A stretch of DNA of 43,468 nucleotides from an uncultured Candidatus Saccharibacteria bacterium (GTDB taxonomy: Bacteria > Patescibacteriota > Minisyncoccia > Phycocordibacterales > UBA918), in contig CAZBMV010000004.1 in NCBI GenBank assembly GCA_964493145.1, forward strand, positions 1 to 43,468, written 5' to 3'. Within the stretch, counting starts at the first letter, position 1; every line of letters begins with the position of its first letter. This document shows positions 13,926 to 17,945 of the stretch, in pieces. The position numbers and the translations under genes are program-made. The notes beneath the pieces were generated by a model. The model ran no database searches. It was given only the letters and a program-made list of their open reading frames with translations, and had not been told where the DNA came from.

Positions 13926-14039
13926 TTACTTCTTTCGCTTTGCTGCCTTCTTCTTTGTTGCCTTCTTTGCGGTCTTCTTTGCAACTTTCTTCTTTGTTGC
14001 CTTCTTCGCAGCTTTCTTTGCTTTCTTTTTTGCTGGCAT
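13926..14039 (-). CDS. 37-aa Lys/Ala-rich histone-H1-like peptide (not in ORF track)
   Basis: MPAKKKAKKAAKKATKKKVAKKTAKKATKKKAAKRKK*. Clean ATG...TAA with its own downstream terminator. Confidence 0.85.
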   Translation of the reverse strand: MPAKKKAKKAAKKATKKKVAKKTAKKATKKKAAKRKK

Positions 14040-14179
14040 GATATCAGTTAAAATTTAACTCACTAACATTCGACCGCATTATTCTCTTTTCAAAGAGCAT
14101 TATTCAAAGAGAATCGTGCTTACATTCAATTATCATCCATATAAAAATTGTTACAACATTTTTTTTAAAAAATGTGTGG

Positions 14180-14207
14180 ATAAATATTTTTTTAAAAAAA
14201 TATTTAT
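14180..14207. repeat. Perfect 28-bp all-A/T palindrome
   Basis: ATAAATATTTTTTT|AAAAAAATATTTAT. Confidence 0.85.
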
Positions 14208-14222
14208 TTTATTTTTGTTGTC

Positions 14223-14267
14223 GCACTCGCACAAAAAATTTTTTTAAAAAATTTTTTGTGCGAGTGC
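14223..14267. terminator. 45-bp palindrome (22-bp arms, 1-nt centre) directly after the murB stop
   Basis: GCACTCGCAC-A6-T6-T-A6-T6-GTGCGAGTGC. Confidence 0.65.
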
Positions 14268-14269
14268 CT

Positions 14270-15292
14270 TCATGGAAGTGTGCGTACCTCCTCTTCAACA
14301 ACAATTCCTGTTCTTTCAAACACACACGCAATAACTTTTTTTGCGAACGCTTCAATCTCACGTGCGCTCGTTCCCTTCTCGCACACGAGAACGAGTGCCT
14401 GTCCTTCGTGAAGACCGACGTTTCCTTCTCTACATCCGCGGAGATTGCACACACGGTCAAGAATCCATCCGAGCGAAAGTTTTACGCCGCCGTTTTTTTC
14501 CGGGTACGCGGGAATGTCGGGGTACTTCTCTTTAAGTTTCTCCCACTCATGTACGCCGAGTATCGGATTCTTAAAAAAGGAACCTGCGGTCCCCACGACA
14601 TGCCAGTCGGGTAATTTTTTCTTTCGTATCGCAATAATCGCACTTCGCACTTCGTCTATGCTCGGCGACGCATTTAGACCGAAGTGCTCGCGCAACTCTT
14701 TGTACGAGAGTCGGGGAGACGTACGACGCGTCACCGCAAACCGTACGCGAAGAATGATGTATCGTGCGCCCTCAGGTTTTTTAAAAAGTGAATCGCGGTA
14801 TGCGAATTGGCATGCTTCGTTTGAGAGTTCACAAACTTCGTCGTTCACCATGTCATACGCAATGACGCTCTCAATTAATTCACGTGCCTCAACGCCGTAC
14901 GCACCAACGTTCTGTACGGGAACGGCACCAACCGTCCCCGGTATGTGAGAGAGGTTTTCAAGACCCCATAGTCCCCTTTCCACGAGCTCAGCGATGAAGT
15001 CGTCCAAGATTACCCCCGCATCAGCGGTGGCGATTGTCGTTTCATTTCCTTCTTCGTACGTGATTTCAGACGACACCATGCGGATGACGATTCCCGAAAC
15101 ACCCACATCTCGTATGAGCACGTTTGAACCGCCCCCCATAACGGTGATGCGGTACCCATTTTCTCGCGCCCATCGCACAACGGCAAAAAGATCCTCGTCG
15201 GTGCGCACTTCGGCAAAAAATTGAGCCGCCCCGCCACTGCCGAGTGTCGTGTATGGTGCGAGAGGTACGTTTTGTTGTATGAATGGTGGCAT
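14270..15292 (-). CDS. murB: UDP-N-acetylenolpyruvoylglucosamine reductase
   Basis: MGGGSNVL, GLENLSHIPGTVGAVPVQNVGAYG, FAYRDSLFK, TAGSFFKNP, HEGQALVLV. Confidence 0.97.
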   Translation of the reverse strand: MPPFIQQNVPLAPYTTLGSGGAAQFFAEVRTDEDLFAVVRWARENGYRITVMGGGSNVLIRDVGVSGIVIRMVSSEITYEEGNETTIATADAGVILDDFIAELVERGLWGLENLSHIPGTVGAVPVQNVGAYGVEARELIESVIAYDMVNDEVCELSNEACQFAYRDSLFKKPEGARYIILRVRFAVTRRTSPRLSYKELREHFGLNASPSIDEVRSAIIAIRKKKLPDWHVVGTAGSFFKNPILGVHEWEKLKEKYPDIPAYPEKNGGVKLSLGWILDRVCNLRGCREGNVGLHEGQALVLVCEKGTSAREIEAFAKKVIACVFERTGIVVEEEVRTLP

Positions 15293-15301
15293 ATAAATAA
15301 A

Positions 15302-15397
15302 AATTCATCGCTTTATACGACCAAGAGGTGCAACATCCAAATTAATTGAAAGTCTAATATTGTGAGTGCCGCCCTTGATCGTATGAAACGATGAATT
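15302..15397 (-). ncRNA. 26-bp stem / 44-nt loop hairpin ending 10 nt before the murB ATG (candidate structured leader or ncRNA)
   Basis: 15302-15327 pairs with 15372-15397. Three of the four non-WC positions are G-U on the minus strand. Confidence 0.55.
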
Positions 15398-15433
15398 CGT
15401 CTGTGTCAGGAAACAGTCCCAAAGTGGAACCTA

Positions 15434-15447
15434 CTGTAAGTATACAT
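15434..15447 (-). promoter_or_regulatory. Copy 2 of the 14-bp -10-containing element ATGTATACTTACAG
   Basis: Identical to 15609-15622 and contains TATACT. No clear -35. Confidence 0.5.
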
Positions 15448-15540
15448 AAATAAAGAAACTAGTGAGTATACGATCTCCACATAATGCAAAATCCCTTACA
15501 GGGACTGTACACCATCCTTGGGTACATTGAGTACTAAACA

Positions 15541-15608
15541 ACAAAAAAGTCCCCACCCCGGAGACCTCTTTGTTAGACTTTCATTTGAAGTGCGTCATGC
15601 ACTCACGG
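15541..15608 (-). ncRNA. Predicted ~70-nt small RNA with intrinsic terminator
   Basis: Follows TTGAAT-18-TATACT (15643-15614). Contains the hairpin GAGTGC-ATGAC-GCACTT and the terminator GTCTCC-GGGGT-GGGGAC-TTTTTT (15541-15573). Confidence 0.5.
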
Positions 15609-15643
15609 CTGTAAGTATACATCTATGTATACACATCATTCAA
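15609..15643 (-). promoter_or_regulatory. Promoter TTGAAT-18-TATACT with overlapping palindrome GTATACAT-ct-ATGTATAC
   Basis: Read directly from the sequence. Shares a 14-mer with 15434-15447. Confidence 0.5.
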
Positions 15644-15658
15644 GTTAACTAATCATCA

Positions 15659-17860
15659 CTACTGTGGAGTCACTTCATTTTGAATCCCAAGATTCGTCCC
15701 AATCATACTTGTCATAAACTGCTCCGCCTGCTCCTTGAAACTCGGAATGTCTTCTCCCGCTTTCTTCAAGATCTCAACGGCACGTGCGGTGTCACCGGAC
15801 TCATTGAGTACGTACGCGAGACTGGTGCGCTCTTGTGGATCGTTTGGTTTCGCTGCCACGCGCATCTCAAGCATTTCAATGAGGAGCGAGTACTGCTTTG
15901 CCATGTACGCCGCCTGCACCGCTCTATCATCCATCGCAAGCGCACGCTTCTCTTCCTCGGTCGTGATGATTTCACTCACGCGTTCCGGCATCTTCGCGTA
16001 GAGGAGCGACATCGCATAGAGAACGCGCGATTCCATAAACTGCGGACCAAGGTCGTACGCCTCCTTGAAGAGTGCGACACCTTTCTCCATATCCTGCTTC
16101 TGCAAGTGGGCAAAGCCCTGCTCGTAGATAATGAGTTGCTTTCGCGGTGAGAGTTCGCGAGCTGTGTTGAGGTGCTCAATCGCCTTGTCGGTGTTGCCGG
16201 TCATTCTGTAGAACGAACTGACGAAGACCTCAACGCGCGCGTCTCCCGGCTTTTCGTCAATTTGCTTGAGAAGCTCTTCCTCAACGCGCACCGCAAACTT
16301 TTGCTTGATCTCATCAGGCACGTTCTTGTCTTGGTAGAGCGACTGGAAGCGCTGGGTCATCTGTTCGCGAATTTCTTGGTTTCCGAATGAGTTTCGCGAG
16401 AGCGCGATGTTGAAGTGCTCAAGCATCGCACTCGGGTCTTGTGTCCTGAACGCGTCAATGATGTCACTCGCGGCTTTGATATTTGGCACGTTGACGTAGT
16501 AGACGGTTGCAAAGAGGACGACACCGATGATTGGTGTCACCACCTGCTCCACGACGCTCGTGTTCACCTTCCACGTTTCAATGTTCTGAACAGGTACGGC
16601 GACTCGTGCGTGAATGTACGCGAGTATCGTGCCGTAGAAGATGTAACTGACAATGTTGTCAAAGACGAAGACGTTGTGGACGAGGTACCCCGCGAGAAGT
16701 CCGAGGAGTACGGCACGCTCAATGGTGGAGAACGTCTCATCGTCTCTCCGCATGAGCGGACGAACGAAGAGGTAGTACACCGCCGCGCCGAGAATGGAGA
16801 AGTACGCAATGAGTCCGAGCGCACCTCCCGCAATGAGCCAATCCATGACAATGTTGTGCACGCGGTCAAACCACGCCTCCTGCCCATGGAGTTCCGGTTC
16901 GTAGTACTTGTTGAAGACGTAGTTGTAGTTGCTCTGCCCCCACCCGAGAATCGGACGCTCTTTCACGCCATTGAACGCCATTGACCATATATCAAAACGA
17001 GTTGACGCTTCTTTGAGTGAGATAGAGGCAATACGCTCAAGGTACGGATTCTCCTGTATGAATGCCGACTCCTTGAAGGTGACAAAGAGCGCCACGAGCG
17101 AGATGAGACCCACGATGCCTCCCGTCGCAACCTTGCGAACGATTGGGTACTCCCGCGCGAAGAGTGCCATGTACGCCACCATGATGAATGAACCGGTGAG
17201 GAGGCCGAGGACGGTACCGCGCGTTGCGGTCTGCACGAGGAGGTAGATGAAGAGGAGCGCGAGGCCGCCGTAGACGTACCGTGCGCCGACACTCTTTGTA
17301 CGGAAGAGCATGAAGAACGTAATGAATACGTGGAAGAGCATGTAGATAGCCATGTACGCCGAGTTTCCGAGTGTTCCATCAAGGCGCCATCCTCCCTGGT
17401 TGATGGTGATGTTGCCTGAGAGCTGCGCGAATGCGTAGAGTGAGAGAACGATGGCAACGCCGATTGTTGTGATGAAGAGTCTGTCCCACACTTTTTCCGT
17501 GCGGAGTACGCTCCCCGCGACGAGCATGTAGAGGAAGGTGTGCACCAAGGTGACGTACCCCTCCATACGCTCAAAGTTGCTCCAAAAACTTGCGTGAGAA
17601 TTCTCACCAAAGAGGTTGGCAAAAAACATCACGACGAGGAGTCCGCTGAAACAGGCGAGGATCCACGAGAAGCGCGGACGGTAGTACGGCTCGTAGAGCG
17701 CGAGTATGACCCACGCTGCAAAGATAATTTCAACAATAATGCGAAAGGCGAAGTTCTTTCCCGTAATAAATGGGAAGAAGAGCGGATTGGAAATGTACAG
17801 TACGATTGCGGGAATGATGAAAATTCCGGCGTACACGAGTGCTTTTGATATATCTTTCAT
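15659..17860 (-). CDS. O-antigen ligase (Wzy_C) family membrane protein with C-terminal TPR region; probable O-oligosaccharyltransferase
   Basis: About 12 TM segments, RLDGTLGNSAYMA, TATRG, RPILGWG, FDRVHN. Start MKDISK (ORF-track start 17920 probably overextended). Confidence 0.88.
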   Translation of the reverse strand: MKDISKALVYAGIFIIPAIVLYISNPLFFPFITGKNFAFRIIVEIIFAAWVILALYEPYYRPRFSWILACFSGLLVVMFFANLFGENSHASFWSNFERMEGYVTLVHTFLYMLVAGSVLRTEKVWDRLFITTIGVAIVLSLYAFAQLSGNITINQGGWRLDGTLGNSAYMAIYMLFHVFITFFMLFRTKSVGARYVYGGLALLFIYLLVQTATRGTVLGLLTGSFIMVAYMALFAREYPIVRKVATGGIVGLISLVALFVTFKESAFIQENPYLERIASISLKEASTRFDIWSMAFNGVKERPILGWGQSNYNYVFNKYYEPELHGQEAWFDRVHNIVMDWLIAGGALGLIAYFSILGAAVYYLFVRPLMRRDDETFSTIERAVLLGLLAGYLVHNVFVFDNIVSYIFYGTILAYIHARVAVPVQNIETWKVNTSVVEQVVTPIIGVVLFATVYYVNVPNIKAASDIIDAFRTQDPSAMLEHFNIALSRNSFGNQEIREQMTQRFQSLYQDKNVPDEIKQKFAVRVEEELLKQIDEKPGDARVEVFVSSFYRMTGNTDKAIEHLNTARELSPRKQLIIYEQGFAHLQKQDMEKGVALFKEAYDLGPQFMESRVLYAMSLLYAKMPERVSEIITTEEEKRALAMDDRAVQAAYMAKQYSLLIEMLEMRVAAKPNDPQERTSLAYVLNESGDTARAVEILKKAGEDIPSFKEQAEQFMTSMIGTNLGIQNEVTPQ

Positions 17861-17906
17861 AATGCCAAAAACTATATCACGTGTGGCACGAGGTGAAAAC
17901 GGTGAC

Positions 17907-17945
17907 AAAAACACCCGCAATCGCGAAGCGATTACGGTTGTTTTT
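17907..17945. repeat. REP-like hairpin R1, copy 1 (GCGAAGC on + strand)
   Basis: AAAAACACCCGCAATCGC-GAA-GCGATTACGGTTGTTTTT. Confidence 0.8.

Follow-up and report, generated by a model that had tools for sequence, protein, structure and literature searches.

In the CopA/CopT pair of plasmid R1 and the RNA I/RNA II pair of ColE1, a small RNA first contacts a hairpin loop in its target, and pairing spreads from there; these pairs are cis-encoded, fully complementary and plasmid-borne, and they control replication. Two small RNAs also pair with each other in the sponge systems SroC–GcvB, AgvB–GcvB, RosA–RoxS/FsrA and 3'ETS-leuZ–RyhB, and in T-box leader–tRNA recognition and OxyS–fhlA kissing, a trans-acting RNA meets a structured 5' leader at two or more sites in the same 5'-to-3' order. 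Here we describe a locus related in principle to such systems, located in a 43,468-nucleotide (nt) stretch of DNA from an uncultured Candidatus Saccharibacteria bacterium (contig CAZBMV010000004.1, positions 1 to 43,468; hereafter "the window"). The 366-nt spacer (15293-15658) between the gene for a Wzy-type membrane protein and murB probably contains two independent small-RNA genes, termed RNA1 and RNA3, the products of which are built to pair with each other. Judging from its conservation and covariation, this would be an undescribed pair of small-RNA families, shared by many Parcubacteria of the candidate phyla radiation (CPR).

The CPR, or Patescibacteria, make up a large share of bacterial diversity. 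To our knowledge, their RNA biology is almost unexplored, and we know of no lineage-specific small RNAs characterised in them. The spacer had drawn attention in an original prediction made from the letters of the window alone, which proposed either one ~310-nt pseudoknotted RNA or two RNAs that kiss and thereby control a peptidoglycan gene.

Results

Complementary segments in the spacer

The spacer is read on the minus strand, like all genes in this part of the window, and the features given below lie on that strand. It opens with a promoter, TTGAAT (15643-15638) and TATACT (15619-15614) being 18 nt apart, and this is followed by a unit of ~70 nt with an intrinsic terminator. Further on comes a hairpin with 26-nt arms (15397-15372 and 15327-15302, with one C·A mismatch), a 44-nt loop (15371-15328) and a U-rich tract after the stem. 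The 14-mer ATGTATACTTACAG is present at both 15622-15609 and 15447-15434, of which the original prediction had located the second copy only. Two segments of the first unit are exactly complementary to two segments of the hairpin loop, i.e. GTGAGTGC (15606-15599) to 15369-15362, and TGAAAGTCTAA (15583-15573) to 15357-15347, in crossed order; both complementarities are conserved in homologues. All of these elements were recovered as originally proposed, and the terminator is now backed by covariation. A third proposed pair (GGGACTGT, 15420-15413, with 15508-15501) fared less well: it is complementary in the window and is not conserved, ACAGTCCC being absent from the homologous loci L001 and L003.

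The density of such complementarity is not that of shuffled sequence. In 1000 dinucleotide shuffles of the spacer, an exact inverted repeat of at least 11 nt arose in 2%, a direct repeat of at least 14 nt arose in 0.2%, and none (0/1000) reached the 11 inverted 8-mer word pairs observed, against an expectation of 1.25 ± 1.44. The fold energy of the spacer has a z-score of -5.1. The earlier observation is therefore confirmed as real and well above chance. The findings that would have spoken against it, namely an absence of covariation, a match to an Rfam family or a lack of conservation of the complementary segments, did not emerge from any of the analyses below.

Conservation across homologous loci

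Homologues were gathered by look-ups of exact proteins and by DNA pattern scans for the core of the RNA3 loop; the pattern used for most loci fixed the two loop segments A' and B' (defined below), such that the divergent loci are the informative ones. Scans with the loop core returned 8 Parcubacteria genomes, 40 metagenome contigs and 0 viral contigs, and a MurB-based scan of genome contigs turned up no close relative. Six extra loci, from Lloydbacteria, Pacebacteria, a marine lineage and others, were reached through homologues of the Wzy_C-TPR protein with no RNA pattern used, and both RNAs were present in 6/6. Including these, RNA1 and RNA3 occur together in 41 loci, each locus having a single copy at the same syntenic position, down to ~30% identity of the Wzy protein to that of the window; in these homologous loci, the pair is always flanked by the Wzy_C-TPR gene and secA.

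The same gene order is found at loci whose MurB is 95%, 79% and 61% identical to that of the window. In L001, the entire hairpin unit is 100% identical at the DNA level while the MurB protein is 79% identical, and the hairpin is likewise identical in L003. In L004 (MurB 61%), the loop is kept and both stem arms have changed yet still pair. Two open reading frames (ORFs) of 41 and 44 amino acids (aa) within the spacer display no coding-type pattern of conservation; it is the RNA stems and loops that are conserved instead.

Predicted pairing and co-evolution between RNA1 and RNA3

Two helices between the RNAs correspond to the complementary segments described above, and both are conserved: helix A (GUGAGUGC:GCACUCAC) joins the 5' end of RNA1 (segment A, 15599-15606) to segment A' of the RNA3 loop (15362-15369), and helix B (UGAAAGUCUAA:UUAGACUUUCA) joins segment B of RNA1 (15573-15583), which contains GAAAGUC, to its exact 11-nt complement B' (15347-15357). 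Segment A' is invariant in 48/48 RNA3 homologues, the six loci reached via Wzy included, and B' co-varies with B in L060-L064. The core of helix B thus reads GAAAGUCU:AGACUUUC (RNA1:RNA3) in the window, AAUAUCU:AGAUAUU in L060, UAAAUGUUCU:AGAACAUUUA in L062, with a matched 2-nt insertion in both RNAs, and CAAAUGUA:UACAUUUG in L064, with five compensatory pairs; in L061, GAAAAUCU:AGAUCUUC combines one compensatory pair with one mismatch. The pair that flanks helix B is U:A in 15 loci, A:U in 10, C:G in 4 and G·U in 1, as read from alignments to the covariance models of RNA3 (R1) and RNA1 (R2) that were made independently. In a matrix of duplex energies for RNA1 with the RNA3 of its own and of other loci, L060, L062 and L064 each show their best value for the RNA1 and RNA3 of the same locus, whether rows or columns are compared.

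A third helix, C, was missed by the original prediction. It pairs (C)UUCAA(N) of RNA1, located directly 5' of B, with UUUGGA(G) of RNA3, located 3' of B'; in the window, segment C (UUCAAAU, 15583-15589) faces C' (AUUUGGA, 15336-15342; mostly UUUGGAG in homologues), and this duplex is predicted in 29 loci. Because C abuts B and C' is 3' of B', helices B and C make up one nearly continuous duplex, interrupted in RNA3 by a bulge of 2-6 nt, and in many group-2 loci (a set of loci with no adjacent murB) this duplex reaches into GAGCUC. In place of the usual helix C sequence, L037 has CCAUC:GAUGG and L059 has CUAUC:GAUGG. The segments are ordered A-hairpin-C-B in RNA1 and A'-B'-C' in the RNA3 loop; the first ~35 nt of RNA1 can therefore be read as a circular permutation of the complement of the loop (C-B-A). 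That GUGAGUG/CACUCAC and UUUGGAG are strictly invariant while B/B' drifts suggests that these elements do more than join the two RNAs.

Evidence for two transcription units

The distance between RNA1 and RNA3 ranges from ~20 to ~1000 nt and the intervening sequence is unconserved; it is deleted in L003 and L001 and spans 500-1000 nt in L004, L020 and L035. RNA1 precedes RNA3 on the same strand in most loci. In L029, L033 and L050, RNA3 alone is inverted relative to the order Wzy, RNA1, secA, so that the two RNA genes converge with their 3' ends 18-216 nt apart. The variable spacer and the convergent loci, together with the terminator of RNA1 and a promoter of RNA3's own, argue for two transcription units rather than one 310-nt RNA. 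Of the two alternatives originally proposed, it is thus the pair of RNAs that is borne out, also by the co-varying helices between them and the covariation in the RNA1 terminator, and the same evidence speaks against the single pseudoknotted molecule. RNA3 is inverted in L034 and L049 as well.

Between RNA1 and RNA3, the window carries a further hairpin (15481-15515), AUGGUGUAC-AGUCCC-UGUAA-GGGAU-UUUGCAUUAU. Homologues of the form AAGGURUAC … NNNC-YGUAR-GNNN, with covarying stems, are found in L004, L012, L015 (three copies), L018, L020 and L051, and the hairpin is absent from L001 and L003. It may be an optional extra element or a small RNA in its own right.

RNA1

RNA1 spans ~70 nt (15536-15607), its 5' end being inferred from the -10 box and its 3' end being placed in a U tract. 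The model R2 matches the window at 15534-15607 with 67.6 bits and recovers RNA1 in 41 loci. The promoter appears to be of the sigma-70 type: a promoter scan detected the -35 box TTGAAT (15638-15643), and the -10 box TATACT (15614-15619) lies within the 14-mer at 15609-15622. Among homologues, a TANNNT box is located 3-10 nt (mostly 5) ahead of the RNA1 model start in 40/41 loci, and -35 boxes of the TTGACx type are common ~17 nt upstream of the -10 (e.g. in L060 and L062-L064).

In every one of the 41 homologues, folding predicts a hairpin at the 5' end followed by a single-stranded seed and then a terminator. The 5' GUGAG is near-invariant in 39 loci (consensus GUGAGYG). The 5' hairpin (P3, 15588-15604) shares nucleotides with segments A and C when RNA1 is unbound and is predicted in all 41 homologues despite their differing sequences; at its base, GAG of segment A is paired with CUC or CUU of segment C. 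For most of the 41 homologues, the window included, the seed (segment B) is predicted to be left unpaired. The terminator (15536-15572) is formed by the stem CAAAGAGGUCUCC/GGGGACUUUUUUG, a GGGGU loop and a U tract. Its stem of 12 pairs is 95.6% paired across the alignment, 9 pairs display compensatory changes, and its covariation score is 0.64 versus 0.23 in shuffles; U tracts after the stem are visible in the alignment. With a promoter, a Rho-independent terminator and an accessible seed of conserved complementarity, RNA1 has the predicted anatomy of a trans-acting base-pairing small RNA (sRNA). A sliding RNAduplex scan for other RNA1 targets in the window gave, as its top matches, the antisense strand of RNA1 itself and long gapped artefacts.

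The terminators also differ in kind between groups of loci. In Kaiserbacteria-type loci, the loop and 3' arm GGGGUGGGGA (15551-15560 in the window) are invariant, with CUCC, CCCC, CCUC or CCCU as the 5' arm, and group-2 terminators have loops unrelated to these. L004, L012 and L017 contain additional copies of the motif GGGGUGGGGA in their long spacers, some of them in inverted orientation.

RNA3

RNA3 is ~100 nt long, or ~135 nt with a clade-specific extension. Its hairpin occupies 15301-15397 in the window, the apical loop lying between the arms at 15371-15328. Model R1 matches the window at 79.6 bits, on this strand only; across loci its scores are ~46-94 bits for one strand and never exceed 22 bits for the opposite strand, with a single copy in each locus. 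The stem is 24-26 base pairs (bp) long across homologues, and in a MAFFT alignment of 42 sequences, 22 of its 26 pairs display compensatory changes. Stem cells are paired in 91.6% of cases versus 67.5% after shuffling and 40-49% with slid partners, and the covariation score is 0.69 versus 0.25 in shuffles and 0.13-0.21 with slid partners. G·U pairs are frequent in the stem; together with the strand-specific R1 scores, this indicates a constraint on an RNA of the given strand, not on the DNA. The apical ~44 nt are near-invariant and follow the pattern (G)GCGGCACUCACA-N1-5-UAGACUUUC-N-UUUGGAG-N3-4-GCACC.

A TANNNT box lies 0-12 nt ahead of the hairpin in 40/48 RNA3 loci. In the clade of the window, the corresponding -10 box TATACT (15439-15444, within the 14-mer at 15434-15447) lies ~40 nt ahead of the hairpin, from which it is separated by a 5' extension of ~35 nt particular to this clade. 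This extension (15398-15435) is seen only in the window, L001 and L003, and it holds GGGACUGU, the arm of the unconserved third pair, of which the proposed partner ACAGUCCC is absent from L001 and L003. At the other end, the stem runs into the U-rich tract UUUUUAUUUAU (15293-15303), which is the sole spacer before murB and probably acts as a leaky terminator. A U tract follows RNA3 in many homologues, not in all.

In some loci, the 3' half of RNA3 is repeated. In L028, L030 and L047, a 20-31-nt direct duplication of this half (e.g. GCTCGCACCCGTCCTCCACGATGCGTCGAAG in L047) surrounds a GC-rich insert of ~190-230 nt, an arrangement suggestive of an insertion event with target duplication. The same segment is present in inverted form after RNA3 in L029, L049 and L050.

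Gene setting and relation to murB

Upstream of the spacer, a 753-aa membrane protein is encoded at 15659-17920; it is 92% identical to a protein of L001 annotated as Wzy_C plus TPR. Downstream, the murB ORF occupies 14270-15292, with its ATG at 15292, 8 nt past the end of the RNA3 model. Its homologues carry the domains PF01565 and PF02873, and its relatives are from Candidatus Kaiserbacteria/Parcubacteria. The 3' side of murB leads into a Lys-rich ORF and then secA; this 37-aa ORF (13926-14039) is Lys/Ala-rich and begins with MPAKKKAKKAAKK. The AT-rich spacer between murB and the 37-aa ORF (14040-14269) contains TTATCCACA (14175-14183), the sole perfect DnaA box of the 43-kb window, ~1.1 kb downstream of the RNA pair. 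L022, L024, L032 and L037 have the same DnaA box downstream of RNA3, ahead of the Lys-rich ORF or secA. Its placement suggests a conserved regulatory site or proximity to a replication origin.

The order Wzy-RNA1-RNA3-murB-secA is the most widespread arrangement. In ~20 lineages with a MurB identity of 36-100%, the murB start codon is located -14 to +41 nt from the RNA3 3' end (+8 in the window), and in L060 and L062-L064 it falls within the 3' strand of the RNA3 stem. Since this leaves no room for another promoter, the RNA3 promoter probably drives murB as well, RNA3 forming the leader. In the window, read-through of the U tract would be the only evident route to murB transcription, making RNA3 the 5' leader of murB, and binding of RNA1 could then also act on the murB mRNA as a lineage-specific add-on. 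The pair is nevertheless conserved to the same degree without an adjacent murB, as in group-2 loci and L061, and where RNA3 alone is inverted; in L012, L031 and L056, murB is more than 800 nt away. As the pair is also present without an adjacent murB, control of this gene can be at most a secondary role; any effect on murB would be a lineage-specific consequence, and the RNAs appear to have a function of their own.

Known RNA families

The original prediction had recognised no RNase P, transfer-messenger RNA (tmRNA) or riboswitch in the spacer, and database comparison agrees. Rfam 15, searched at gathering thresholds with the window and 15 homologous loci, gave no match; with the cut-off relaxed to E <= 10, the region and L032 returned only microRNA-precursor and leader noise from the hairpin and terminator; ARAGORN found no tRNA or tmRNA in the window. 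A one- or two-piece tmRNA was accordingly rejected, there being neither an ARAGORN nor an Rfam tmRNA match. An informal by-eye comparison with consensus features found no fit to signal recognition particle (SRP) RNA, 6S RNA, Y RNA, group II domain V or mimicry of the 16S 3' end/anti-Shine-Dalgarno sequence. H/ACA-like pockets, IS110 bridge RNAs and TIGR or CRISPR guides did not fit by eye either, and no associated protein genes lie nearby. Full-text literature searches yielded no account of the pair, and a recent preprint on intergenic features that they returned names none of the taxa or genes concerned.

Discussion

We consider it likely, on the strength of the conserved and covarying promoters, terminator, RNA3 stem and inter-RNA helices, that the spacer encodes two separate small RNAs designed to meet. 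From the predicted folds and the segment order, we infer an order of pairing, a junction geometry and a biological output as follows. The free seed B would dock on B' in the RNA3 loop, the lower part of the RNA1 5' hairpin would open, and helices A:A' and C:C' would then form. The product would be a four-way junction covering nearly the whole loop, its arms being the RNA3 stem, helix A:A', what is left of the RNA1 hairpin, and C:C' running on into B:B'. The output might be a stable two-piece RNA or ribonucleoprotein (RNP) with a housekeeping role in Paceibacteria, or else titration or RNase III-type processing of RNA3 by RNA1. In its boldest form, the former possibility would make RNA1 and RNA3 the subunits of a new, vertically inherited two-piece housekeeping RNA/RNP of Paceibacteria, joined by the four-way junction, in which the invariant GUGAGUG:CACUCAC and UUUGGAG are catalytic or protein-binding and which ranks with 6S, SRP and RNase P RNA; this we put forward tentatively, as an idea with the balance of probability against it.

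Several observations weigh against the proposal of two partner RNAs. Since the search pattern fixed A' and B', the inter-RNA covariation rests mainly on 6-8 divergent loci. Helix A is without positive covariation because A' never varies, and it carries a C·A mismatch at position 6 in 9/39 loci; the pair flanking helix B is mismatched in 9/39 loci. RNA1 was not located within the fetched flanks of L015, L034 and L049, and neither RNA is present within ±3 kb of murB in L005 (CP064968.1, a complete Kaiserbacteria genome) or L007. These two loci, both from Kaiserbacteria relatives, have the same Wzy-murB(-secA) order, with Wzy-murB spacers of just 54 and 23 nt; the pair has been lost or relocated in some such close relatives. 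A search of public sequencing runs for the locus gave many DNA runs, the organism being present in runs from sludge, bioreactors, sediment and freshwater, and otherwise only DNA-like runs labelled RNA-Seq, hence no transcript evidence: the runs labelled "METAGENOMIC RNA-Seq" that hold the locus or its homologues (X25, X26, X31 and X32) contain 17-90-kb contigs with even genic coverage, and as they behave as DNA, they are unusable as evidence of expression.

Among other explanations, the one closest to the original prediction is a murB-specific riboregulator, in which RNA3 is a cis leader or attenuator and RNA1 is the dedicated trans regulator of read-through, translation or stability. The tight placement of the start codon in ~20 lineages, with no room for another promoter where it falls inside the stem, is as this would predict, as are the prevalence of the Wzy-RNA1-RNA3-murB-secA order and the resemblance of the 26-bp stem with UUUUUAUUU in the window to a leaky terminator. 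The claim of control over a peptidoglycan gene thus holds in a weak sense, i.e. that murB abuts RNA3 and is probably co-transcribed with it; a dedicated switch does not follow, given that conservation of the pair is no lower in group-2 loci and L061, which have no murB after it, that murB is far removed in L012, L031 and L056, that the lone inverted RNA3 of L029, L033 and L050 leads into no gene, and that L005 and L007 have murB and no RNAs nearby. The RNAs do not always lie in cis, upstream of murB and on its strand, as a riboswitch, T-box or attenuator would, and a riboswitch was rejected. No conserved alternative pairing of the terminator/antiterminator or RBS-sequestering type is seen in the alignments, and in many lineages the start codon lies right next to the foot of the stem or overlaps it. 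Moreover, RNA1 would contact just the loop and the uppermost 2-3 bp of a stem of 24-26 bp, and for this reason should not affect termination. We regard such a riboregulator as rather unlikely. Less probable still, and indeed very unlikely, is one pseudoknotted noncoding RNA of ~310 nt running from the first promoter to the end of the hairpin, with the inner terminator and promoter as structural parts. The crossed order of segments would give a pseudoknot, the whole region folds well, and RNA1 then RNA3 on the same strand is the order in most loci; such a molecule would nonetheless have to accommodate an unconserved middle that is deleted or expanded between loci, a canonical covarying terminator with stem and U tract in its interior, a -10 box at a fixed distance ahead of RNA3, and units that converge in three loci.

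Two further readings would place the element among known kinds, and we give hardly any credence to either. GAAAGUC is the motif of conserved region I (CR-I) of RNase P RNA, and CR-I is universally conserved in RNase P. A diverged or split housekeeping RNA, of which a minimal two-piece RNase P is the likeliest form (A:A' as P2, the RNA1 hairpin as P3 and GAAAGUC:GACUUUC as P4), would account for this motif and for the order A-hairpin-B … A'-J-B', which mirrors the P2-P3-P4 pseudoknot, by resemblance only. The P4-like helix is not invariant, however, reading AAUAUCU in L060, AAAUGUUCU in L062 and CAAAUGUA in L064; it is perfectly paired with no bulged U, CR-II to CR-V and an S-domain (P10-P12) are absent, and there are two transcription units with nothing conserved in between as opposed to a single transcript of ~300-400 nt. 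Among other housekeeping RNAs, tmRNA is not detected by ARAGORN. RNase P RNAs of the CPR are diverged and often score below Rfam thresholds (PMC8172020), a point in favour of this reading; yet Lui et al. found RNase P RNAs of the RF00010 type in all 35 circular CPR genomes, Paceibacteria included (PMC8172020), and the RF00010 and RF00011 models gave no match here even at E <= 10 on short stretches. Since helix B co-varies and no model matches, the RNase P reading is rejected. Equally improbable is a constraint at the DNA level, i.e. a mobile or repeat element, an origin-proximal cruciform or a protein-binding site. To its credit stand the perfect DnaA box, ~1.1 kb downstream in the window and directly after RNA3 in group-2 loci, the duplicated RNA3 3' halves around inserts and the repeated GGGGUGGGGA terminator motif in L004, L012 and L017. 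Against it are the single syntenic copy per locus down to a Wzy identity of ~30%, the absence of the loop pattern from viral contigs, the framing of each unit by a promoter and a terminator, and the strand-specific model scores, with G·U pairs that would be C·A on the other strand.

Two partner small RNAs thus remain the explanation that we favour, and the conservation of the pair exceeds that of the essential genes flanking it (the hairpin at 100% versus MurB at 79% in L001). The pair provides a testable entry point into CPR RNA biology, being short, covariation-supported and co-evolving, with natural compensatory variants available, and covariance models of RNA1 and RNA3 could be used to annotate Paceibacteria genomes. 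Should the two form a housekeeping RNP, this would constitute a new class; should RNA1 instead regulate RNA3 and the co-transcribed murB, this would be the first CPR sRNA circuit described, and one touching on cell-wall synthesis.

Comparison with known systems

Each of the described systems shares one aspect with the pair and departs from it in others. In its gene arrangement only, RNA3 is reminiscent of 6S RNA-ygfA, where a structured RNA with a strong promoter of its own lies just upstream of a promoterless ORF; RNA3 lacks the central-bubble architecture of 6S RNA and has no Rfam 6S match. The P2-P3-P4 core of RNase P shares with the pair its order of segments and, in most members, the GAAAGUC motif; it differs in that the pair matches no covariance model, has a P4-like helix that co-varies, lacks the other conserved regions and is made as two transcripts. 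As in T-box and OxyS-fhlA interactions, a trans RNA would here contact a structured leader at multiple sites, a leader that in the window precedes murB. Unlike in those systems, RNA1 is not a tRNA, no conserved terminator/antiterminator alternative is seen in the alignments, and the pair persists without a downstream gene. RNA1, with its seed and terminator, is similar in build to the RNAs of the sponge systems. Sponges described so far pair through a single short seed, are encoded away from their partner and are conserved only within genera or families, whereas RNA1 would form three helices over the entire 44-nt loop of a neighbouring RNA.

The nearest likeness is to CopA/CopT and RNA I/RNA II, with regard to the docking of a small RNA on a hairpin loop and the spread of pairing from it. 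In both settings, a full duplex would be topologically hindered and would give way to a multi-helix junction, which the permuted order of segments in RNA1 predicts for the present pair. Membership in the cis-encoded antisense class itself was rejected, as RNA1 is encoded upstream on the same strand or separately on the other, and full complementarity is lacking. In place of a plasmid-borne antisense transcript, the window carries a chromosomal RNA that would act in trans on a partner encoded ~170 nt away, start to start. Across the many Parcubacteria lineages that share the pair, its two members usually lie on the same strand, tens to hundreds of nt apart, and match each other through segmental, permuted complementarity.

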